Assembly: GCA_002811645.1 (NCBI GenBank)
Contig: PDIP01000103.1
Coordinates: 1-64,000 of the forward strand
Length of the DNA stretch: 64,000 bases
Origin: Corallochytrium limacisporum Hawaii
Taxonomy: Eukaryota; Protista; Pluriformea
Reading direction: 5' to 3'
In this document: positions 1-32,395 of the stretch, piece after piece
Layout of the letters: the number at the start of each line of letters is the position of its first letter
Numbering within the stretch: position 1 is the first letter of the stretch
Notes under the pieces: generated by a model
The model's input: the letters and a program-made list of their open reading frames with translations, nothing else
The model's database searches: none
What the model was told of the DNA's origin: nothing
Translations under genes and position numbers: made by a program

Positions 1-42
1 AACCTGAACCTGAACCTGAACCTGAACCTGAACCTGAACCTG
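1..42 (+). repeat. Telomeric repeat array (AACCTG)7, G-strand unit TTCAGG
   Basis: Seven perfect hexamers starting at base 1. The C-rich strand runs 5'->3' into the contig, as expected at a left chromosome end. Followed by a degenerate ACCCTTAG. Confidence 0.85.
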
Positions 43-756
43 ACCCTTAGAAGACTTGCATAAGGAAAATCGGAGCGCCATGAGTGTTCATCGGAGAGGA
101 GGAGAAATATTTTTTCAATATTAATTATGCCCATATCGGAATCAACAAGCCAAGGGGCAGCCCAACCCGACTCACAAGTGGATCAAGTATGGTTAGCAAG
201 AAAGTGCGCAAGCAAGAAATTGTGTGGTGCCCAGAGTACGCACCCGGGTGTATGTGTATAAACGTGCAGAGAAGAGTTGTCCTTCTTGCACCGGCATGAT
301 GTATTTGCTGATTGGGTTACATATCCCTATCGAACAATTTAATAAATGCTATGCTTTTTCATGTTACGGAGGAAACGGGGATCGAAACTTCCAAAGCAGA
401 AGAGTGACTTACCGTCACCCGAATTAGAAAGGAAAGCGAGAGTATTATCCTAGGGGGTGAAATCCGAACAGCCTAGCAAAGTTGCTAGAAGCGCCCTGGG
501 CAAACCGGAATTCAAGAAGTGATCAAAGGAGTTTTGAATCATAATATACTTCAGTGCTGTACTTCAATAAATATCACATTATTCCTCTGTAACAAATAAG
601 CCATGACGGGTATACCACGGTCTATAATCTGACATCATGTCCACCCAAGTATTTGAGGGCACGAATGATAACACATCTACAGTGATCACCACAGAGATAA
701 ATAACAATACCTCCACCTAACATCAAGGAAACAATTTTCACAAACAGAAACTCACC

Positions 757-1362
757 ATGGTGGCCTCTGTGATCCCCAAGATCGGTGCACTCTTGTGTAG
801 CTCTGTCGGCGCTGGCTTGCTGATGAACTCTGGATTGTTTCAACTCAGTCATAAGTCCCTAGAGACAACCGACCAAACGATCATATACTCTGTTCCCCAA
901 GTTCTCACTCAGGGACAGACAACAATCTTAACTGGTTTGGCAATCGGAAATGTTTTAGGTAGCGTTATGGCTGTCCTCTTTCTTCTTGTAATTATCAAAC
1001 CTGCGGAATCTAACCCCTTCATGTTCCTGTTCCTGAACTCAATTTTCTCTTTTTTATGGACCATTGTCATGGTGGTACTGGCAGGTACCTACCTTAGTCA
1101 GTTTCACAAGAAACTTCCGACTGTTAAGAGCTCGTCAGGTTTTGTTTCCCCTAAGATATCTCTCATCACAATCTTCAATAGCAGCTTCCCGGACAGTTCC
1201 ATATATTCCAGCGTTGCCGTGTTCACCTTTATTGCCGCGTTCTGCTGGTTATGTGACTTTATTATGTGCTGCGTCTATCAAACTAGAAAGGCTAAAACAT
1301 CTAAAACCGATGATTCCAGGACGCAAACCAGTACAGCGGGCCTAGAACTCATGACAGTGTAG
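757..1362 (+). CDS. Orphan four-TM membrane protein (MARVEL/tetraspan-like topology), 201 aa
   Basis: ATG in CACCATGG context. Four hydrophobic segments (IGALLCSSVGAGLLM, LAIGNVLGSVMAVLFLLVII, FLFLNSIFSFLWTIVMVVLAG, VAVFTFIAAFCWLCDFIMCCV) and a basic cytosolic tail. Confidence 0.7.
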   Translation: MVASVIPKIGALLCSSVGAGLLMNSGLFQLSHKSLETTDQTIIYSVPQVLTQGQTTILTGLAIGNVLGSVMAVLFLLVIIKPAESNPFMFLFLNSIFSFLWTIVMVVLAGTYLSQFHKKLPTVKSSSGFVSPKISLITIFNSSFPDSSIYSSVAVFTFIAAFCWLCDFIMCCVYQTRKAKTSKTDDSRTQTSTAGLELMTV

Positions 1363-1767
1363 GTTGTTTTAGATCGGTAACGCATCCTCCCTGAACCATC
1401 TACCGCTATGGAATGCTTTTAAGTGTTACTCGCTCCGCATTGACCGATATGGGTTCGCAATCTTAAATCAATAATCTATAGAATGGCCTCCATTTCGAAC
1501 TCAGAATGATATCTAACAAGAAACCGACGCAACCCGTATAGCTCACCGGCAATACCCTTTTCCCCTTTCGTCCGAATGAGTACCACGGTACGTCACCATT
1601 GAGCCTACCCGATACAGCTGCTGCAGAGTGTGTTCTTGGAAGCATCGACATCCCGTTTGCAGGCCGCACAGATGTCAGGAAAAATCAAAGTGAGTGACAG
1701 CAGAAGCTGTAACACATCAGTTGTACGCAGTACCGCATAAAGGCCTTATAGTCACTGACGCCCAAAG

Positions 1768-1775
1768 TATTTAAA
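1768..1775 (+). promoter_or_regulatory. TATA-like element upstream of the Cys-rich secreted gene
   Basis: TATTTAAA about 115 bp upstream of the ATG at 1889. Confidence 0.3.
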
Positions 1776-1888
1776 GGTGTATTGCGCGCCTACATCAACT
1801 TCATAACCATAATCAACTAATTTTAAACTAATTAGCTTTCGACATTGCCCATAGCATTGATCGATCAGCAAACCTGTCCCTGTTCATC

Positions 1889-2299
1889 ATGAAATCGTTC
1901 ATTCTTGTAGGCCTCAGTGCCATTGCTGGTATGGCAGCTGCGTCCCCTGCCAAGTGCCAGCAGCCCGAGTCGTGCACAATTGCTACTGAATGCTGTGACA
2001 ACGAACCGTTCCTCATGACCTGCGTCCAGTCCAAAGAAGGGAACTGTGTTGCATACAACCTCAATGGCAATCCCCGTAGGATCAACGATCCATGTGATGA
2101 CAACAGCGACTGTATGTCACAGTGGTGCCAGAATGGCTTCTTCGCTCCCAACCTCGTCAATATGAATCCACCAGCTCTTGACGACGGCGAAGACTGCTTG
2201 TGGGACTTTTCTTGCAAGGGAGGCTGGTGTGCCCCAGCTCCGGGTGACTCTGGCGTGTGCAAAGACCGCGCCCTCTCTGACGATCCCCCCAAGTGGTAA
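1889..2299 (+). CDS. Small secreted Cys-rich protein (knottin-like module plus two C-x5-C-x4-C modules), 136 aa
   Basis: Signal peptide MKSFILVGLSAIAGMAAA. 13 Cys; the first six form C-x5-C-x5-CC-x8-C-x7-C. Then CDDNSDCMSQWC and CLWDFSCKGGWC. Confidence 0.85.
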   Translation: MKSFILVGLSAIAGMAAASPAKCQQPESCTIATECCDNEPFLMTCVQSKEGNCVAYNLNGNPRRINDPCDDNSDCMSQWCQNGFFAPNLVNMNPPALDDGEDCLWDFSCKGGWCAPAPGDSGVCKDRALSDDPPKW

Positions 2300-3665
2300 A
2301 TGGTTTGAGACAATAGAACCCGCCGTTGTATTGGTTTAACCTCTGAGACATCCAATTCTGCCCTTCTTCTTGTAAAACAGGTGTTCATTGTTCACGATAT
2401 GTGACACATCTCGAAGAGCACGGCTTGCAAGTTGCTCTTGACCCCATCGTCGAGTCTTGGGAATGCGTGCCAGGTCCCCCCACGGCTCCTCGCCGTTTCT
2501 CAACTCGCCCGTTCTGGGTCAGAATAACTCAATAAATCTCTAAGTTGGTGGGTGTCACAGAAATTTCCAGCCCAAAGTACAGCCAGCTTTTGGAGCCATC
2601 ACCGCCCGTTGCTGCATAATACCACGTATGTTCGTCCTGTGCTCCCATTTGTACATCGATTGCTCGCGATTTGGACAACCACCCACCCCATGTGAATTTG
2701 CCAGTATGTCCCAGCATTGAACAAGAAGTTGCCGCTGCCTTGTCCTCCATTGAATCCAATATACGAATAAGGAAAGGGGATCCAGCACCATTGTATAACC
2801 CAAAGGGTATTCTATTCTGTTAGTTTCCATCCCTAAGATTCGGATTTTTTTGAGACTCCCCAATAAAAATATGTGGACGGATGTTTTAGACAATGATTCA
2901 GAAGAAAAGCCATGCCATGAGACCCTACCAAGAGAGAGGAAGAATTCTGCGGTCGCCAACTGCTGATATCCACCGAAATTTCCTGCGCCGTTGGCATTCT
3001 CGTTGTTACAGTCGGTGATTCCATGCAAGTAGGCAGCGATGGACATTCTCACCAAAAGCGAACACCATTGAAATCTATACCCGGGTTTCTTGCAGGATGA
3101 TCGTATGCATGCTGATAAATCAGATTTCTCCTTGCATTGCGCCAGAACTATTGAAACTGGTTTTCGCTAAGGCGCACTCGGTTTCTACGGTCGGGTAGCA
3201 GCAGCAGGTATGCGATATATTACCAATATCCCTACATTGGCCACTTGCAAGCCCCTCCATAGTCAAAACCCTTACAGAGGAGATTGGTATAGGACAACTG
3301 ATGGCGGCATGAAGATCGGGGAGCATGCCATCAGACACCACACCGCAAGCAACGGTAAGGCCTCCGATATAGACTTCCCCAGCTCAGTAGAGAATTAAGG
3401 AAGCCGGGTTCGGCTACCGATGAATGCTTTCTGAACAAACTGGAATGAGTATATTGTCTTCTCTCCGCCCCCGAAACCGTCAGTCGCCCAGGTTTCCAGG
3501 CGAGCCCCATGTCCCGGACAAAGTCCAGGCTTTAGAAATGACTTTAGCGGTATCAGGATTCAATATCAGTAATAGAGAGTGTCTTTTCACAAGATGAACG
3601 CTGCCGTAGACTTCAAAATCAGTGGATGCTTGGCCTTACCTAAAGACTTTCACATTCGAAGGCAT

Positions 3666-5207
3666 TCAGCAAGTACGTTTGATTGTGTACATATGACCTG
3701 CTTCGTCTGCAGGCTCATACTGAGTACAAACATCGGCAATAATCAGAGACGTGAGATCAAAATTGTCATTTGCTGCCGAACCTCGTGCGCTCTGACTACT
3801 GCAACCCCTCATGAGCGGATACTTCATGGACATCTCTCTGTCACAGACGTTGCTGTGACGGTCTTCCTCGGTCATATTGGTGATGTCGCAGCCCCAAATT
3901 TCCATGAATAGGGAACCAGCATTGCCTTCTGCCACTCCGTTTGCTGATGTATGGATCAGGCTGTTAACAAACGTGTCCGACCACTCTGCGCCGATAACAT
4001 CTTTCGCCAACTTAACCACATTCAAGATTTTCGCTGGGGTAGTATAGTGTCCGTACCACACAAGATCACGCACAGAGTCTGAATAGTCGCCATTCTGGTT
4101 CTTCCGCAAGGGTGTATATTGCTTGCCCCAGCCCTGGACATGAAATTGGAGTCCGGCATAGTTCTCATTCCATACAGCCTCACCGGTATAGAATATGTCA
4201 ACATTGACTTCATCGACAGACAGAGATATGTTCACAAGAGCATTGTCCGGCACCTGTACGGTAGCCGAATACTCATATGCTTGTGAGGACTCATGGCTGC
4301 TGCTTTCTTCGCTTCCGAAAGCCTGGCTCGAAGTTTCCTCTATGCCCATGGTGAAACTAGAGCTGACCTCAGAGCTAAAAGCACCCATTTCGAATTCTGC
4401 ACTGGCTCCAAGACTCCATTCATTACTCTTAGTTACACTGTCAGCAACCTGGCAAGAAGAGAAGGATGTGAAGGTTTGTGTCATGGTCTCTTCGTACAAA
4501 AAAGAGCTTGGTATGCAGGTGTTCAAGTTGTTTTCGAGTAGGAACGATTTGGGAGCGCCAAATTCGCGATCTGATTGAACTGACCACAGGGCTGACTTGA
4601 GGGAAACTGGGGAGTTTGCCAACTCCAAAATGGCATTCAGATCAGTTCCTGTATAGTCATCAGGAAATGCAACATATTTCGGGACAAAGTTTTTGTCATC
4701 ATCAGATCCCTCGACACACTTTCCCTTCATGGTCACGTTAGGGAAATCCTTTGGAAAGAGATCGTGCAAGGCATTCATCCAAGCATCCCGACGCTCTTTG
4801 TTCTCAGGAGTTTCAGGTACGAAATACGGCGCCATCAGGACGGGGCAAGTCACAGCATTAAGCTTGTAAAGCAAGCTCCTCCAAGGACTCCACACTTTGT
4901 CATGTTTCGACGGAACGGCAAAGTTGCCCATTCGAGGACTCATGTAATTTTCAAAGTCGGTTCCCAGTCTTGCGACTTCTTTAGCCAAGACCTGGATGTC
5001 GACAACGCCACCAATGATAGCGTCCTTGAACGAGTCCGGGATATCTTCTTCCCAGAACGAAAGATCGGCTTCCCAATCGGTGAAATCAGGATCCTCCTCG
5101 TTCTCACATGCACCTCCAGCACTGCGTGATGTCATGGGATAAGCAGAAACCATGGCCATACCAAGCACAATGGCCGCAAGTCTAGAGGCGTGCTTCATAG
5201 TTTTCAT
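3666..5207 (-). CDS. Secreted aerolysin/ETX-MTX2-like beta-pore-forming protein, paralog A, 513 aa
   Basis: Signal peptide MKHASRLAAIVLGMAMVSA. S/T-rich strands flank an amphipathic hairpin (NEWSLGASAEFEMGAFSSEVSSSFTMG), followed by VQVPDNALVNISLSVDEVNVDIFYTG. Aligns along its length with 7728-9563. Confidence 0.75.
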   Translation of the reverse strand: MKTMKHASRLAAIVLGMAMVSAYPMTSRSAGGACENEEDPDFTDWEADLSFWEEDIPDSFKDAIIGGVVDIQVLAKEVARLGTDFENYMSPRMGNFAVPSKHDKVWSPWRSLLYKLNAVTCPVLMAPYFVPETPENKERRDAWMNALHDLFPKDFPNVTMKGKCVEGSDDDKNFVPKYVAFPDDYTGTDLNAILELANSPVSLKSALWSVQSDREFGAPKSFLLENNLNTCIPSSFLYEETMTQTFTSFSSCQVADSVTKSNEWSLGASAEFEMGAFSSEVSSSFTMGIEETSSQAFGSEESSSHESSQAYEYSATVQVPDNALVNISLSVDEVNVDIFYTGEAVWNENYAGLQFHVQGWGKQYTPLRKNQNGDYSDSVRDLVWYGHYTTPAKILNVVKLAKDVIGAEWSDTFVNSLIHTSANGVAEGNAGSLFMEIWGCDITNMTEEDRHSNVCDREMSMKYPLMRGCSSQSARGSAANDNFDLTSLIIADVCTQYEPADEAGHMYTIKRTC

Positions 5208-5350
5208 GATTAAGTATTAAGTTTCGTTTCAGAATTGTTTGCACGAAATACAAGTTTTACTCAGGCTTGAGAACCAAAGTTGGTCAGATTGACGATATGA
5301 GCCTTGATCAGATCGATCATTGACGCCAGCCTTTCATGAACCTAGGCGCC

Positions 5351-5358
5351 CTTTTATA
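5351..5358 (-). promoter_or_regulatory. TATA box of paralog A
   Basis: Minus strand reads TATAAAAG about 145 bp upstream of the ATG at 5207. Confidence 0.5.
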
Positions 5359-6661
5359 GGCGAATGGGCAAATTTTCTTTCGGGCTGCATGTTGAATCGC
5401 GAAGTCGCAATGTGTACTCTCATATTCATTCCGAAAGAAACAATTGTATAGCAGGGACATTGGAATGCTGTGTACTACGTAAAAAGGTCTCGTCATTCAG
5501 TTGACACCAAGCAGTAAGGCAGAAGTGGCTTGAGTCCAGACCAGTCGATTTCACAAGGCAGTGTACTACAGGACCGACACCATGGCAGCCACAATTGCCA
5601 TTCTTGGAAGATCTGATGACGGCGATAGACGACCCACCGATTGCACAAATCTGACCCGTGTGTTGCCGAGCCTTTGGACCAACTCCTCCTCCCCCAAACC
5701 CCCCCAGAGGGGGGGGTTGTATTGGTCTTCATTCCACTGCCAAACTATTCTTATCGGTATCCCCCTTCCATAAAGGGCCGGGTGGAGGTAGGAAGAACAA
5801 ACACGGGACCTCCGCGTAGGGGAAGCTTCCGGGTCAGGATACGAAAACAGTACCTCAAGTACATTTGCTATGGAATTTATTGACAGCAGAGGACCCAATC
5901 GCCGACAGGAATCTTTGTGGTAGTAGCTATCCCTAAGCAAAGAAGACGGGACATGAAGAACGGTTAGCTGTTACATACAACAATCGTCGTAAACCGCATG
6001 GGTACAATCTCATAGACGACTAAGAAATTGGACTCTAAGACTCATAATTTCACTATTGACGTCAAATTTTCCTCTAGAAAACATGTCAAACTACGACAAT
6101 TTAACCGCAAATTGTTTGGTTGACTTAAGAAACCACAACGATGTGGCCAACGAGACCACACACCAAGGCACCAGTATCCTCACGAGTTGTACACACCATA
6201 GTGAGAACCAGGGTGCCAAGAGTGCATACCAAAGTGAAGCTTACAAAAATGCAGTCCATTGTGTCCTCTGCTGGCACACTCACCTAAGAAGAATTGTCCT
6301 GTTTGGTTACAGCAATAATGATCATCGGAGTCTTGTGGACAGTCCGCGATGGTATGTGCATCATCGGCAATGTACAAGACCATCGAAGTAGAGAAAAGAA
6401 CATCTTGGTTCTGCAATGGTTTTCTAATATCCCAATGGTGCATACTGGAACTTTAACAAAATCTTCTTCCGTCGTACGAAGGACGAAAGAACAACAGATC
6501 ATGCATCCTTTCTGTCCTCGTATACATGTGGTGTCGGGTCTGACTTTTCCTGTGCTTTTCACATTGACGATTTATGACGCACTTAACATAGACAAATCAA
6601 CGAGGGTTCGCTAGTAGAGGACACGCGCCAATGGGTTCTTCCTCATTGGGACGGAGAATAG

Positions 6662-7016
6662 TAGTTTGATCGCTGGACCCAGGTGAAGCCTTCATGGTCA
6701 GGTGAGAATTCTCCGCCTTGTTATTCTTTGACCTCAGAACGTATTGTATACGCATACTACGATCTATCAATCCGTCATACATTACAGAACACTGTACACC
6801 CAAGATAGAAAGAACACTGGCCATGCTGATGTAGAGCTTCCTCGCGCAAAACTAGTTTGGCCGCGCTACCCAGGTGCGGCCAACATTCTCAGATGAGCCT
6901 CTCTGCCTTGTTGCTCTTCGAAATCAGAGTGTATTGTATACTCATAGTTCAAGGCTAGCAATCCGTCATACATCACAGAACACTGAACGCCTTAGATGAG
7001 AAGAACCTTCGACATG
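6662..7016. repeat. Diverged ~190-bp tandem duplication (possible pseudogene remnant)
   Basis: The blocks cccaggtg, gccttgtt, gtattgtatac, caatccgtcatacat and acagaacactg each occur twice about 190 bp apart. Both copies encode GVQCSVMYDGL on the minus strand, with stops or frameshifts. Confidence 0.7.
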
Positions 7017-7727
7017 AAGCAACTCTGTTAGCACAAATTCGCCACATCCTTGGTGCTACGCTGGACGTGTTCTTTGGCACTATACAATCAAGAAATCATT
7101 CAAATGTCTGGCATCTCATGTGTATACCCGGCCATCTGTATAATACGTAGGTCTACAAGAAATGTCTGGAACTTTGCCCCATTAGTCGATCCCTCACACG
7201 TCACAGACATGGCGGCGGCGCTGCTTGAACCGCTCGTGACAGCGCTATCTCTCGCTGCAGATGGTAATTTCCGTGCGGTTTAGTAGAGGTGAACTCTTCA
7301 ACCTCAAGCCGATTTACCCGATTAGTTCTGAAGTTCCCCCAAGACCAAGTGACAGGGGGGGGGGAGGCCCTTTAAATATCCACCTCGGCGCAGGAACATC
7401 TTGATCAACTCACGGAGAAACACTTCATGTTTAGGGCAGTCCTAAGGTCAAGTCTCAGCAAGGCGAAGAAGACATTACTATCAAGTAGCCAATAGAAAAT
7501 ACAATTTCTTGCAGAAGCCAAAACGGACTGAAACTTAGACTCGATATTTGCGCTTGCATTGCGATGCCGTGCCATGCCATGTTACCGATGCCCAGCTCAG
7601 GTATATATACCGCACGGTCTAGGGATCTCTCTGATCCCAAAATATCATTCATGGGCGCCCAGATCAGTGTATCCAAGTTCCTATATCCTACTGACCTCTC
7701 CTTGTCCCTTTGGTATTTACCCCAACC

Positions 7728-9563
7728 ATGAGATGTTTTGCTTTGGAAACCAACAAGCAATTGCTGGCCTTGCTCTTGGTGGCTCTGCCTCATACCATGG
7801 GCCATCCATTGCACGAGCGTGAAATTGAAGAGTCATGCTTGTACAGCTACTGCGAGGAAAACGAAAAGTCAGCGAATGGAGAACCAATCGACCCGCTCAA
7901 ACCTTTGCTCTGTGGAGGACACTACGGCACAGGGTTTTACCGCACTAACTCCACTGGATGGGACGGCAACCTGTTGCCCATGCGAGACCAAATCAATGCC
8001 GTTAATGGCCATCTCATAATTGAGGACATGGCCAAAGAAGTTCAACAAATGGGTAGTGATTTTGAAGACTACATGGCACCCAAACTGGGTGACTTCACAA
8101 TTATGAAGGATGGCAAGATTAACCCTTGGGATACCCTGTTGTACAAGCTCAATGCAGTTGCCAGTCCAGCTCTGATGGCACCGTTCTATGTCGAACGCAA
8201 ATCTGAGAATGAAGGAGACTGGGATGCGTGGTATGATAGCTTGATTGACATGTTCCCGCACGGGCTCATGGACGATAACGGCAATGATCAGAAAGAATTG
8301 TGTGCTCGCGATTCCAGTAAAGACGGCATCCGCTATGTCTCATTTCCTGCGTATCACTTCAAGAGCTCCCAAGGTGATTCCAACCGTAACTTTGAATTCC
8401 AGGAACCCTTTGAGATCGTTTCCCGCGTCTGGCAAGCAAGTGCCGAGCTTCACAAAGGCTCGCCGCGAGAACTAATCATGGTAAACAACTTCCATGTGGG
8501 ATGCCAAGAGGGCTCTCTCGCGTACGAGGAATCTGTCATCAAGACTTCCACTGCATCCTCTTCATATGAGTACGAATCTAGCATCACACGTTCCAGCGAA
8601 TTTGAAATGAGCGCCTCCGTTTCCTACGAGATGGAACTTGGTTTCGGTCTAGGAGTGTCTCCGACTTTCAAAACAACAGTTGAAACAGGCCTCAAAAACG
8701 GACTTGAGAGCACCTCTTCCGAGGCTTTCGGTGGAGGGGAATCGTATACTGAGGCAGAAGAAACTCTTGTGAGCTACGGACCCGTAGCAGCAGACTTGCC
8801 TCCACGTTCCGTTACAAACATTACCATGTACGCTGACCAGGTCATTGCGGACATGCACTACACTGGCGACGCTATCTTTGACGACGAATTTCTTGGACTT
8901 CAATTCTACATTGATGGATTTGGTGAAACCAGTGTCCGTCTCGACTCGTATGATGAAAAGGACATTAGGCAGGCCATCGAAGACAAACTCCTCACTACGC
9001 CGGCCAGGATTAAGGAAACGCTTAATCTTGCTGCCAAGGTCATCGGTGCCGAGTGGTCCCCAGCGTTCATAGATAACCTGGTGTCTGCCTCTGGCTCCGC
9101 GAACATTAGGAGCAAAGTGGGGGACAATGTGATGATGAAAGTGTACCAATGCAACCTCGATGATCTGGAAGCAAACGGCTATGTTGTTAACGGCCGTCCT
9201 AAGTGCGATGAGGAGCTTGCAACATTGTACCCAGTAGAACACGACTGTGATGGTAACCCACTTGAGACTGAGACTGAGACGGAGACTGAGACGGAGACTG
9301 AGACGGAGACCGAGACTGAGACGGAGACGGAGACTGAGACGGAGACTGAGACTGAGACGGAGACTGAGACTGAGACGGAGACTGAGACGGAGACGGAGAC
9401 TGAGACGGAGACTGAGACGGAGACTGAGACCGTGACTGAGACGCAGACGAAGCCCCCGAAGCCCCCGAAGGATGATCGGCCGTGGTGTTTCAAACGCCTC
9501 CCATCTTGCTTCAAATTCGAACTTATCACTACGTTCTCTTGGTACGTGCGCGATGACTGCTGA
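7728..9563 (+). CDS. Secreted aerolysin/ETX-MTX2-like beta-pore-forming protein, paralog B, with (TE)n stalk and short Cys-rich tail
   Basis: First ATG at 7728 (the track start at 7710 is TTG). Hydrophobic LLALLLVAL. Shares LLYKLNAV, YTG, TTPA and VIGAEWS blocks with paralog A. Hairpin EFEMSASVSYEMELGFGLGVSPTFKTTVETG, then DLPPRSVTNITMYADQVIADMHYTG. Confidence 0.75.
   Translation: MRCFALETNKQLLALLLVALPHTMGHPLHEREIEESCLYSYCEENEKSANGEPIDPLKPLLCGGHYGTGFYRTNSTGWDGNLLPMRDQINAVNGHLIIEDMAKEVQQMGSDFEDYMAPKLGDFTIMKDGKINPWDTLLYKLNAVASPALMAPFYVERKSENEGDWDAWYDSLIDMFPHGLMDDNGNDQKELCARDSSKDGIRYVSFPAYHFKSSQGDSNRNFEFQEPFEIVSRVWQASAELHKGSPRELIMVNNFHVGCQEGSLAYEESVIKTSTASSSYEYESSITRSSEFEMSASVSYEMELGFGLGVSPTFKTTVETGLKNGLESTSSEAFGGGESYTEAEETLVSYGPVAADLPPRSVTNITMYADQVIADMHYTGDAIFDDEFLGLQFYIDGFGETSVRLDSYDEKDIRQAIEDKLLTTPARIKETLNLAAKVIGAEWSPAFIDNLVSASGSANIRSKVGDNVMMKVYQCNLDDLEANGYVVNGRPKCDEELATLYPVEHDCDGNPLETETETETETETETETETETETETETETETETETETETETETETETETETETETETVTETQTKPPKPPKDDRPWCFKRLPSCFKFELITTFSWYVRDDC
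9264..9449 (+). repeat. Coding hexanucleotide repeat (GAGACT/GAGACG)n encoding poly-(Glu-Thr)
   Basis: About 30 tandem GAGACN units, in frame within the 7728-9563 ORF. Confidence 0.95.
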
Positions 9564-10752
9564 TCATGCACATTTCAAGACCTTGACTCTCTTAAAGGCA
9601 ATAACGTGTCGCACGTAGGGCGAACAGTTACCAGTGACAGCGGAATAGTTGTTGACTAATACATTCCTTGCACACCTGATTTTGTTTTCGACTTCTGGCT
9701 GGTTTCCCATACATACGCTGTCCGTCAAGGACCTCAATCATCGTGCTCCCGAGTAGACTTTCTGTAATGAATGCAAGCAGGGGTGCCACAGACACCGTAA
9801 TATTTCGAGAATTCTTAAAAGACTTTGATGGTGTCCACGTTTTCCGTGGTGCTTTCTCGTCCGGGGCGGCACACCACGTACGCGGTAGATAGCCCAGGCC
9901 AACAGGACCGGACAGAGACAGTGCCCTCTTCCGGATGCTCATCCCTTAATTTCTGTGCGCACGACGACCGGACGTGTTGAGATTCGAATGTCGGTTTCCC
10001 GGAGGAGCGTCGACAAGGTGCATGTTGCCGGACGCATTCAGTTTTCCGGGACGTCAAGCGTGCTCGAATACACGCTCGCAATGCGGTCTCTTGGGAATGT
10101 GGGGGAGAGGTGCAGGTGGCTTCAGAGAATCCATTTTCAGGGTGACAAGATGATACCTTAGTCGTTAATTTTCCAGCCTTCAATATTATGTGGGAACTCT
10201 CGCAACAGGGAGACTCTTTGCATAAGAAGCAACGCACTTGCACTGTGTACTACTCCTAATTGCGACTACCCAATAGATCCCCCGTTGAGCACCAAGGCAA
10301 TTGTCGTGCTTTTTGGCGCGACGCAAAGCGGCAATACCGGGGACACTAATTGATTCATGGTGACAGCAGGCGAAAATCAAGGAAATGAGCACTATTACCT
10401 AAAGAAGTGGAAAAGGAGCAGAACAAGCACCCACCAACTGCCAAGTGTATGGGACATTGGAAGAACCCTTGTGAGTCCACCCACGGTTGGGTGGTACCAG
10501 TACCACAGAACAGCGAGTGGAGCGGGAGAGAAAAAAAGAAAGGGGGTGGGGGCGGGAAGGAGGGGAAGGGACAGGGGAAGGGAGAGGGCAAGAGAACAAG
10601 GAGGCAGCAAGGGAAAAGGGCAGCTTGGGACTCAAGCCCCTGTATCGAGAGCTTACCTAGGTAGGTTTTGTCGGGTTCTAAGGGAAGGGGCGTCATGTTG
10701 CCCATGTTCGTTCCTTTAAACTGTCCCTATGGTTCTAGAGAGCGCTACGTTC

Positions 10753-12346
10753 ATGGAAAGAATGCCCATTTTCAGAACAGGACTCCCTGGCACATCGTTG
10801 GTACTAATTGCAATCGTGTTCCTGATCTCAATGCGACGATAGTGAACGTTATACACTTTCTGACGAAAGAGATCAAATTACCATGTTTTCCCCCAGTATC
10901 AAAACTGCCACAAGCAACAATGATGATGGTTTCTTTTTTGTCCAAAACTTCTCAAAAAATATATCAAGTGCTACCATCGACATTGACAGTGAACTGGCCT
11001 CCTGTTTTACGCACAGTATGTTCGAATATCCTTCTGCAATCATCCAGGCCGTTAATGTCTCTTCAAACGGCACATCACCTGACTGTGATTTTGCAAGCGG
11101 TAGTGTTGTGGTTGACGATGCCAATGGTGGTAAACTGAACGTGAAAGCCACCATGCGAAATGGCGGTCTGAGCCCCAACGGTGGCAAGCCGGTGGTAGAG
11201 ATAACTGACATGTATCTGACACCATTCGGAACAGGCACAAATCAATGGCGTGACAATGATGTTGTTACTGTTTATTACAACGCCTATGATTCGAATTACA
11301 TGACCACATGCGATTGGGACTACTGGTTACTGAATCGTGGATGCCCCGGTGTGTCCATGGACAACATGCAAGGAGGGGTGAACATACCTGTTACCGGTCA
11401 GATAACGTTCCTAGGATTCGGTGAGGTGAATGCGAAATTCACGACGATAAGCGACGATCAGAGACCGCTTGTATGGGAACGCTCACTCGATTTTACACAG
11501 CCATACGGAGGCACAAACTTATCCCAAGACATCATTGCCACAAAGGAAATGTGTAATGTGAAGAGTGCTGTCTATGAAGTATATGTGACACCCCTTGATA
11601 ATCATTTGGTTTTCGATTTGGACTACAGCTGGGGAGCCCTAGGCTGCGAGGTCCACGTCACCGCAGGTACCGAGTATGGTGAGGTGGTCAAGGATGATAT
11701 GGTAGTCGTATGGACAGCACCAGCACGTAGTGAGTATCGTTATGATGACTGGCCCGTGACTCGAATCGCCGCTTGCACGATTGCGGAATTTAATTCACAG
11801 ACTGGCTGCGGTAGTGTAGCGCCATCAGAAGTCATTGGTGGCTTAAATATCCCAAAGAATGACATTCCGTACACGGGCCAGCTTCAGTTTTTCAATGCAG
11901 TGCTCACATTCGGTCATACGCATTCCAGCAGCAATGCTTTGGACCTAGTCTATCCTCCAAGTGTCACATTTCCAGGCTCCAAAGCCTTTTCAGAGAACAC
12001 CCAAGGAGTGATCGCTAGTCGTCAGCAATGCCAAGTATCGAAAACCACCTACACTATTGCATTCTATAACCCTGAAGCTACTGATCCTGGCTCACTAATT
12101 TTGGACATCGACTACGTCTGGCTCAATGGAGGATGTACGGTGCAAATCACTGGTATCTCGCAATCTGCCGGTGCTATAGACGACGATGGGATCGTTGTAT
12201 ACACGGCACCGAAAACAAAGAAGGACGACGCAGTTCCAGAGACCATTCTTGAAGTCTGCACTACCGTGTACTGGTCAAGTCATGATGGTTGCCCCCACGT
12301 AACAGCCGCCGATGTCCTTGGCGGCATTAACGTGCCCAGCCCTTGA
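10753..12346 (+). CDS. Secreted protein with three tandem copies of an uncharacterised ~150-aa Cys-containing beta-rich domain; apparent frameshift after the signal peptide
   Basis: Main ORF is 10883-12346 and is open upstream to 10826 (SQCDDSERYTLSDERDQIT). Repeats begin DQITM/GQITF/GQLQF and end GGVNIP/GGLNIP/GGINVP. The adjacent frame 10753-10842 encodes MERMPIFRTGLPGTSLVLIAIVFLIS. Confidence 0.7.
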
Positions 12347-12698
12347 AAATTTTCCAATTTGAAATCATTATTTTGGACTTTCCCGCATCCGGGGGAAGCT
12401 GTCGTTGCCCATGCAGTCTGCCGTGGACCATAACTCAATTTAGCAAGTACCGTTTCCGTTTGAGGGTGTAACGTTATTTGGCCCCGATCCAAGAGGCCGC
12501 CTCATGATACACTGAGGATCCGAATTACCGATGTCTATGCCACCGTTTTGTATTGAAGCGAGGACTTGCGAAGAGTCTGGTAAACAACTAGTATAAAACA
12601 CAAGTCTGTGGAATATCAATAAATCTCTGGAGAGTCTCTTTGTTGGTTCGTGGAGATTGTGTGCCTGCTGGCAGAATGTTTGCGACCGAATAATGGCT

Positions 12699-14273
12699 TC
12701 AATAGAAGGTCTGACCGAACGGGTTTCCGGCATTGGCTGCCATGGGTTGTCCATACATGTTATAAGCACCCATTTGGGCTCCAGCGGGATACCCGGCAGG
12801 TGCCGGCTGGGCACTGTACGCAGGAGGTGCACCAGCCGCTGGAGCAGCATAACCGGCTGGAGGCTGGGCTGCGATGTAGCCCGCAGGGGATGGTGTGGTA
12901 GCAGCACCCACGGGGGGTGCCCCGTACTGACCTGGCATAGGAGCCGGCGCACCGGGAGCAGCAGTGGATGGCTTCGGTGCGTGCATGCCCGCAACGGCAC
13001 TAACACCTGCGCCACCATTCAAGTACGCGTAAGGGTCCCCGGATTGAGCCGCAGCTTCCACTGGGTTGACCAACTTGGCCGCTTCTTCCGCCTTCTTCTG
13101 AGCCTCTGTCTTGACCCCTCCCGCAGCATCTGAGCTAGCGTACGCTGCCTGCACCTCGGCAGCCACGTAGGTCTTGCCACCGTTCTGCAGGGCATGCTCC
13201 ATGAGCTGACGGCGGTGTGAATCGAGCTGTGTCTTGGTACTGGTGTACTGAGCATTGAGAGACCCAACTGCGGGGTTGATGTGGTTGTCCAACTCCCACT
13301 GCACCCAAGCCAGAGCGCGCTGTACCTCTCTGGCACTAGCCTTCAGGAGCTTGAGACCTTTCCGAATCTGCTGATTGACAATGGCATCGCCAACGAAACC
13401 ATTGAGCAAAGAGTCAAGCAGCAAACCCATCTGTCTGCCAGACTCTACCTTCACGGCAATCATAGTGGGGACCGCCTGCCTGGCCTGATTGATCAGCTGT
13501 TCGGCCTTGGCACCGGCAGCCTTAGCGCGCTTAATGTGCATCTGTTTGCCAACATTCATGCCAAACTGGCCTGGGCCCCGATTGCGAGGACCGTTGACAA
13601 TATTTCCGACCTGATTCATTTGACCCCAACGGAGGGCTGCCTGCATCTGCTGCTCAGCCGATTGGCAGCACTTGTCGGCCTGCTGGATCATGCTGCGCGC
13701 GCTTTCATAGCGCTGTTTATCAGCATTCGCGGCCTGCAAACTCGGCGCAAGGCGGAGGAAATGCACCTCTAATTCATTCTCTTTGGCATCACCCGCACCA
13801 CCCTGACCGCGGAAGATACGTTCCAACATACCCGCTTCCTCAGCTTTGAGCTGCTTCAGCTTGGTGTCCGATCCCTTGAGACTTTGCAGGGTCTTCTCCT
13901 CTGCGGTAAGGTCAGTCTGGTGCATGCCAACCTCTGTTTGCAAATTCCTGATCTTTTCTGTTAGCTCGTTGATTTCATTCTTAATTTCGCCTTCCTTACC
14001 GCTGATGCCTCCCTTTTTGAAACGGGCACCGAAACGCTTCGGGCCACGATGGCCAAGTTTCTCCAGCTGTTCGTCGAGTTTTTTCTTCTCCGCTTCGGTC
14101 TTGGCCAAGTACTTCTTGCTCGACTGAAGCTGAGCGTTAATACCCGCACATTTCTGGTATTGAACATTAGCCTTTACTTCAACATTTTCCGTGCTGAGAC
14201 GCAGGATCTCCTTTGTAACTTCATCAAACCGCTGCAGATCACTCTGCGCGACGGTGCCAGCAGGGGCTGCCAT
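12699..14273 (-). CDS. Uncharacterised coiled-coil protein with a P/A/G/Y-rich low-complexity tail, 524 aa
   Basis: Long ORF with heptad-rich helices. C-terminal PPAGY/PPAY repeats ending NPFGQTFY. Confidence 0.85.
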   Translation of the reverse strand: MAAPAGTVAQSDLQRFDEVTKEILRLSTENVEVKANVQYQKCAGINAQLQSSKKYLAKTEAEKKKLDEQLEKLGHRGPKRFGARFKKGGISGKEGEIKNEINELTEKIRNLQTEVGMHQTDLTAEEKTLQSLKGSDTKLKQLKAEEAGMLERIFRGQGGAGDAKENELEVHFLRLAPSLQAANADKQRYESARSMIQQADKCCQSAEQQMQAALRWGQMNQVGNIVNGPRNRGPGQFGMNVGKQMHIKRAKAAGAKAEQLINQARQAVPTMIAVKVESGRQMGLLLDSLLNGFVGDAIVNQQIRKGLKLLKASAREVQRALAWVQWELDNHINPAVGSLNAQYTSTKTQLDSHRRQLMEHALQNGGKTYVAAEVQAAYASSDAAGGVKTEAQKKAEEAAKLVNPVEAAAQSGDPYAYLNGGAGVSAVAGMHAPKPSTAAPGAPAPMPGQYGAPPVGAATTPSPAGYIAAQPPAGYAAPAAGAPPAYSAQPAPAGYPAGAQMGAYNMYGQPMAANAGNPFGQTFY

Positions 14274-14535
14274 TGACGTGTTTTCTGAGTATGTCTACGA
14301 AATTGGTTCGCCTATTTTACGATGTGGAGTACTGATCCACGAATATTGACCTTCAATACCCTTTTCATTCCCTCTTCTCTGTTGATGCACAGACAAGGGT
14401 GCCCTAAATAGGTGAGGCTGCGCCCGTGGAGTGGAATGTGGGGGTGGCGCTGCCCTCTTGCGGAATTCCGCCCACCACGTTCTTCCCCCCTCTCCGGCTT
14501 CCACCAAGTTGCATGCAAAATGCCCTACTCCTCTT

Positions 14536-32198: not shown

Positions 32199-32395
32199 NN
32201 NNNNNNNNNNNNNNNNNNNNNNNNNNNNNNNNNNNNNNNNNNNNNNNNNNNNNNNNNNNNNNNNNNNNNNNNNNNNNNNNNNNNNNNNNNNNNNNNNNNN
32301 NNNNNNNNNNNNNNNNNNNNNNNNNNNNNNNNNNNNNNNNNNNNNNNNNNNNNNNNNNNNNNNNNNNNNNNNNNNNNNNNNNNNNNNNNNNNNNN
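32199..32395. other. Assembly gap (197 N) with near-duplicated flanks
   Basis: tcggatccccttgggtgggtggga...gggagaaa appears on both sides of the N run. Confidence 0.95.

Follow-up and report, generated by a model that had tools for sequence, protein, structure and literature searches.

Aerolysin-fold proteins with a split helical head form a species-restricted family of probable pore formers in Corallochytrium limacisporum

The first 64,000 nucleotides of contig PDIP01000103.1 of Corallochytrium limacisporum Hawaii (the window) contain two head-to-head open reading frames (ORFs), here called A and B, close to the contig start. We found that their products belong to a species-restricted expansion of aerolysin-fold proteins, whose large helical head doubles as a stand-alone module of a protease. 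A and B are likely to be secreted, self-sufficient pore formers that would be used against neighbouring cells. Positions of individual features are collected in Table 1.

Members of the aerolysin-like superfamily share a five-stranded scheme in which a stem loop links β2 to β3 (PMC5654971; PMC11053738). A confident template-free model of protein A displays this core, with strands at residues 202–226, 232–266, 303–319, 323–345 and 420–441 (strand labels were mapped by us) and the insertion loop at residues 268–296; for B, the same arrangement follows from the alignment only. A preliminary description of this DNA had proposed an aerolysin/ETX-type β-pore module, to be checked by structure prediction and structural search. 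When the model of A was used in a structure-only search, the aerolysin family ranked first; the matches included Cry23Aa1, one of the top ones, and 2D42, a non-toxic protein. Together with the family profile, the model and the fold searches bear out the proposed module, and protein A almost certainly has the predicted aerolysin fold. The idea of a new subfamily in a protist was likewise corroborated by the family scan and the fold searches.

Sequence profiles fared differently from structure. Pfam returned no match for A or B, PF01117 included, and neither the ETX_MTX2 (PF03318) nor the Aerolysin curated cut-off was reached, and the proteins are assigned to neither of these Pfam families; the best family relative scored 21 bits against ETX_MTX2, for which the cut-off is 22. 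Coupled with the match of a serine-rich model and with the failure of a first structure model (discarded), for which three sequences were used and which reached a pLDDT of 36 and matched no structure meaningfully, this could be taken to mean that the resemblance is an artefact of Ser/Thr composition among unrelated secreted glycoproteins. We regard this as highly improbable, since the aerolysin family comes first when a template-free model of high confidence is searched by structure alone, and both strand order and split head agree with the published topology (PMC5654971).

Another hallmark of the superfamily, an amphipathic loop with flanking Ser/Thr-rich strands, is present in all 25 members of the family that carry the pore module. 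The Ser/Thr fraction is 0.39 in this module against 0.14 elsewhere. The alternating polar/apolar hairpin noted earlier is indeed there: in A, 11 of 13 positions on the lipid face and none of 13 on the lumen face are apolar, and in B the corresponding counts are 10/13 and 0/13. Across all 25 members, 8–12 of 13 positions are apolar on one face and 0–2 on the other; the face positions were chosen post hoc from the family profile, which makes the shuffle p-values post hoc as well. The net charge over the 13 lumen-face positions is acidic in both proteins (−5 in A, −3 in B), within a family range of −5 to +2. In the soluble-state model of A, the hairpin (residues 264–289) is mostly helical, and the stem loop is modeled as two helices, like those of CPE and HA3 (PMC5654971). 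Membership of the superfamily further entails an oligomeric ring, a 7–9-mer that permeabilizes membranes. By analogy, actual pore formation by A and B is quite probable.

In the superfamily, the membrane-binding domain consists of the N-terminus together with the β4–β5 loop (PMC5654971). The preliminary description had treated the N-terminal domain of A and B and the insert after the YTG motif as separate parts that resemble nothing recognizable. Judging by model and sequence, these are the two halves of one discontinuous head, because the model of A fits the published topology and because both segments are joined in a protease relative, P0011 (record Clim_evm1s30). Behind its Reprolysin/M12B metalloprotease domain (E 2.6e-13), this protein carries the head alone in three repeats, with profile positions ~32–193 running directly into 337–409 in each; the ~145-residue β1–β4 segment is missing from all three, as known from the protein record. 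The best solved relatives of P0011 are snake-venom proteases (E 5.8e-13). Its record has no clear signal peptide and may be cut short. Since the pore part is neatly missing from all three copies in P0011, its sequence confirms that the head is a module in its own right and that the pore module is an insertion in it.

Taken by itself, the head had no match in sequence or feature searches. The head-only repeat of P0011 gave no usable Atlas match, and all 52 matches of P0011 to PDB sequences fell on the protease and none on the head; neither a new fold nor the absence of relatives follows from this. In the model of A, both halves of the head are helical, and the whole (~230 residues) is mainly helical at high confidence, and so is neither of the all-β lectin heads (jacalin or β-trefoil) of natterin/Dln1, LSL and SaroL-1. 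Membrane binding by the head would be expected by analogy. The best alignments of the A model to Dln1 and SaroL-1 cover residues ~175–420. Some structural alignments begin at model residue 73–83, so a portion of the head may be distantly related to its ETX/aerolysin counterpart. Three relatives have unusual architectures: P0017 has an additional N-terminal region of ~230 residues, P0026 keeps half of the head and the tail and is missing the pore module, and P0029 is a fragment of the head. They are either natural variants or broken gene models.

Six core cysteines are nearly invariant, each being present in 22–24 of the 22–25 rows covering it in the family alignment. The core is followed by a linker and a two-cysteine tail. 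A dibasic [KR]R site occurs in the linker of 11 of 19 members, compared with 14 of 389 core windows, and is missing from A's own linker. In 6 of the 25 aligned rows the tail is short or absent, B being counted here because we trimmed it; the match of the B tail to the family tail profile is not significant (E 0.16). Many, although not all, superfamily members are precursors that become active once a terminal peptide has been removed (PMC11053738). The modeled two-cysteine tail is a likely candidate for such a pro-peptide, because the structural alignments of A with epsilon toxin and with Mpp proteins extend to the end of its tail (ranges only).

How large is the family? A phmmer scan of 1.84 billion representatives yielded 28 matches at E≤0.001, one of them A itself, whereas word-based searches recovered only A and P0004 (56% identical to A) and nothing for B. 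Including A and B, the family comprises 31 sequences; the aligned set consists of the 25 carriers of the pore module and leaves out five fragments and P0011. All 22 named relatives (20 of the 27 other phmmer matches, P0004 and P0037) bear the EukProt tag 'Clim', which we take to stand for Corallochytrium limacisporum, although the main text of the genome paper (PMC5560861) has no such tag; for seven relatives the name was not looked up. Outside close pairs, the 25 members are 20–38% identical. In their tree, A and 12s208 are sisters (100/99), with B and 11s10 joining them in a four-member clade (100/100). The 22 named genes lie on 18 scaffolds and 17 of them have a gene index of at most 12. 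If names give the order along scaffolds, the family prefers scaffold ends, which need not be telomeres. Within the window, tBLASTn matched A and B alone; a third weak match turned out to be an antisense frame of B's repeat.

None of 45 candidate stretches in viral contigs, of 51 in prokaryote genomes or of 436 in metagenomes proved to be a relative, and plasmids yielded none either; all of these are scans that reach close relatives only, and for this reason they neither identify a donor nor argue against one. One unnamed viral model did match (E 6e-4). The third-position GC content (GC3) of A (0.51) and B (0.54) falls inside the window range of 0.49–0.64, and thus gives no sign of a recent transfer.

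We next considered the proposal that A and B, co-regulated from their shared upstream region, work as the two components of a pore. Their genes are arranged head-to-head, and two further adjacent pairs exist among the named relatives, 85/86 on scaffold 108, whose members come from different subclades, and 82/83 on scaffold 33. Moreover, B differs from A in the hairpin tip and the tail, as distinct partners might, and Cry23Aa1, one of the top structural matches, is one half of a binary toxin. However, the Cry23 partner, Cry37, has an unrelated fold. A and B both retain a complete hairpin and head. The family is dispersed: only 4 of the 22 named relatives are in adjacent pairs, and 18 are without an adjacent named family member (with seven relatives not looked up), so that no consistent partner linkage is seen. 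The closest relative of A is 12s208 rather than B. Finally, the A–B spacer contains just two TATA-like boxes, one before each gene and 2.25 kb apart. These observations speak against the proposal, and an obligate two-component pore co-expressed from the shared spacer appears quite unlikely, although the pair may still share an enhancer or form mixed oligomers.

We instead lean towards an outward-directed role, in which each paralog acts alone. Going by superfamily behavior, A and B would be secreted as soluble, disulfide-stabilized monomeric precursors, and the head would bind a foreign cell through a ligand on its surface. The C-terminal tail, predicted to pack where the pro-peptides of epsilon toxin and Mpp proteins lie, would then be loosened or cleaved off. 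Monomers would assemble into a ring, and the hairpin with its flanking strands would refold into a transmembrane β-barrel, with an acidic lumen in A and B. The likely role would be competition, defense (for instance, from grazers) or nutrient release by lysis, and the paralogs would have diverged to act on different targets. Of the roles named earlier, predation fits poorly, because Corallochytrium is described as a small free-living osmotroph forming palintomic colonies (PMC5560861); competition or defense seems likely.

The same lifestyle might also suit a different scenario, in which the fold has been recruited to serve the cell itself or to act without lysis, in the wall or matrix, in adhesion, or in remodeling of the cell's own membrane (e.g. 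daughter-cell release). The stalk-like Glu-Thr repeat of B, which the preliminary description did not mention, is typical of surface proteins (a PARP-like match was below the cut-off), the head also serves the protease P0011, and the non-toxic 2D42 has the same fold. Nevertheless, strict hairpin alternation in 25/25 members despite 20–38% identity implies selection for membrane insertion, and neither A nor B has a GPI-like or transmembrane C-terminus. In addition, expansion with divergence at scaffold ends, seen here in the low index of 17 of 22 genes, is the pattern of conflict genes. We therefore consider a self-directed function unlikely. In a bolder version of the outward-directed role, one modular attack system would unite the ~25 pore formers with a metalloprotease (at least one) that carries three copies of their head, all homing to the same foreign surface, the protease trimming or assisting the pores and paralogs forming mixed pores. 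If true, this improbable scheme would represent a protease-plus-pore cascade in a unicellular relative of animals, independent of animal complement and venoms.

Among the closest known systems is the ETX/Mtx2 (Mpp) class, including Mpp75Aa1.1 (7ML9), Cry23Aa1 (4RHZ), Cry51Aa (4PKM/5HD2), epsilon toxin (1UYJ) and Sip (8HX3). The Corallochytrium proteins differ from this class in length (~490 versus 250–320 residues) at 7–15% identity, in the ~230-residue mainly helical head, six near-invariant core cysteines and a stem loop modeled as helical, and in remaining below the Pfam ETX_MTX2 cut-off. Compared with Aeromonas aerolysin (1PRE, 5JZH, 9FMX), they have no sequence similarity or PF01117 match, and a small lobe set apart at the N-terminus is not apparent. 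SaroL-1 (7QE3/7QE4), an aerolysin-fold protein from the choanoflagellate Salpingoeca rosetta (PMC9468336), has a β-trefoil lectin head in contrast to the split helical one, and was not recovered in sequence searches with the family. The 23 aerolysin-like biomphalysin genes of the snail Biomphalaria glabrata, in which the lytic part is conserved and recognition varies (PMC8047071), are a comparable lineage-restricted expansion, but they are recognizable aerolysin homologs traced to a bacterial gene, whereas no donor or outside homolog was found for the present family. In the yeast killer toxin K62, which has a role in competition, the aerolysin fold was found only by structure prediction, and K62 also has a Ser/Thr-rich alternating loop and a dibasic site (PMC12691639). 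However, K62 is much smaller and its >1,000 homologs are spread over fungi, plants and bacteria, while the Corallochytrium family is so far known from a single species.

Both ORFs are intron-free and open throughout, and are separated by a spacer of 2,520 bp. In the public protein record, A begins at Met4 (510 aa). For ORF B, an exact look-up in the public protein collection found no entry and two homolog lists do not contain it, so that it is probably a gene lacking annotation. BLASTP aligns A and B over 448 columns (31% identity, E 8e-69), nearly as extensively as first described, with the C-terminal tails lying outside the alignment; all motifs quoted at that time were found in the ORFs, with the YTG strands beginning at 4190 (A) and 8859 (B). 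Hydropathy shows a single N-terminal hydrophobic stretch in each and no later transmembrane-like segment, which is consistent with the signal peptides assigned previously and suggests secretion. The location next to a telomere is likely: the AACCTG array at the contig start is the sole one in the window and its unit reads TTCAGG on the opposite strand, with the G-rich strand running toward the end, although the array is short.

Table 1. Features of the ORF A–ORF B locus (positions in the window)
Feature	Position	Strand	Basis
Telomere-like (AACCTG)x7.8 array, contig start	1..47		repeat scan
ORF A, aerolysin-fold protein, 513 aa	3666..5207	-	ORF list, structure model
A likely signal peptide, residues 1–22	5142..5207	-	hydropathy; cleavage site inferred
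A helical head, N-terminal half, residues 32–193	4629..5114	-	model, family profile
A predicted pore-forming module, strands β1–β4 and stem loop, residues 202–346	4170..4604	-	model, fold search, profile
A alternating polar/apolar hairpin, residues 264–289, predicted membrane-spanning	4341..4418	-	model, profile
A head, C-terminal half (insert after YTG), residues 347–419	3951..4169	-	model, profile
A strand β5, closes pore-forming core, residues 420–441	3885..3950	-	model, fold search
A linker and two-cysteine C-terminal tail, candidate pro-peptide, residues 470–513	3669..3800	-	model, fold alignments
TATA-like box 144 bp before A	5352..5358	-	consensus match only
TATA-like box 119 bp before B	7602..7608	+	consensus match only
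ORF B, paralog of ORF A, 611 aa	7728..9563	+	ORF list, BLASTP
B likely signal peptide, residues 1–25	7728..7802	+	hydropathy; cleavage site inferred
B predicted pore-forming module, residues 227–386	8406..8885	+	alignment to A only, B without own model
B alternating hairpin, 9-residue apolar/Gly insertion at tip	8601..8705	+	alignment
B in-frame hexamer microsatellite encoding 60-residue Glu-Thr repeat in linker before tail	9263..9442	+	repeat scan, translation
B Pro/Lys spacer and three-cysteine C-terminal peptide	9444..9560	+	translation

The window is intron-poor, and 0.0 introns per kb are given for the species (PMC5560861). Of ten proteins tested from the window, seven turned out to be EukProt records with a single member; both observations fit an origin from Corallochytrium. 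An Rfam scan of positions 1–14400 gave no match. Contigs of runs X1 and X2 span neighboring genes and not A or B, which is no evidence either way on expression. The A–B spacer contains an imperfect tandem duplication of ~170 bp (6657–7016; period 190–191, pieces 72–81% identical). In the same subtelomeric block, 1889–2299 (+) encodes a 136-aa protein with a hydrophobic N-terminus, 13 cysteines and no Pfam match, a candidate secreted effector by its sequence; runs X1 and X2 contain 90–95%-like contigs, which points to paralogs. A 201-aa membrane protein with a weak MARVEL match (E 0.018) is encoded at 757–1362 (+), and a 487-aa ORF with apparent internal repeats and no Pfam match at 10883–12346 (+). 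Positions 32199–32395 are an assembly gap (197 N).

The aerolysin fold is already known from bacteria, fungi, animals and one choanoflagellate, and its presence in a protist is unsurprising. What is new is the finding of at least 25 pore-module paralogs, below Pfam cut-offs, in the small genome (7,535 genes; PMC5560861) of a free-living osmotroph. Our literature search found nothing connecting Corallochytrium with aerolysin or pore-forming proteins, and no weapons of this organism are described in the literature covered, which includes few subscription journals and not the supplements of the genome paper. The head-only repeats of P0011 are a natural experiment identifying the split head as an independent module. 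The family may offer a panel of divergent natural barrels, with lumen-face net charges from −5 to +2, for nanopore work, and would provide a testable handle on defense and competition in the unicellular relatives of animals.
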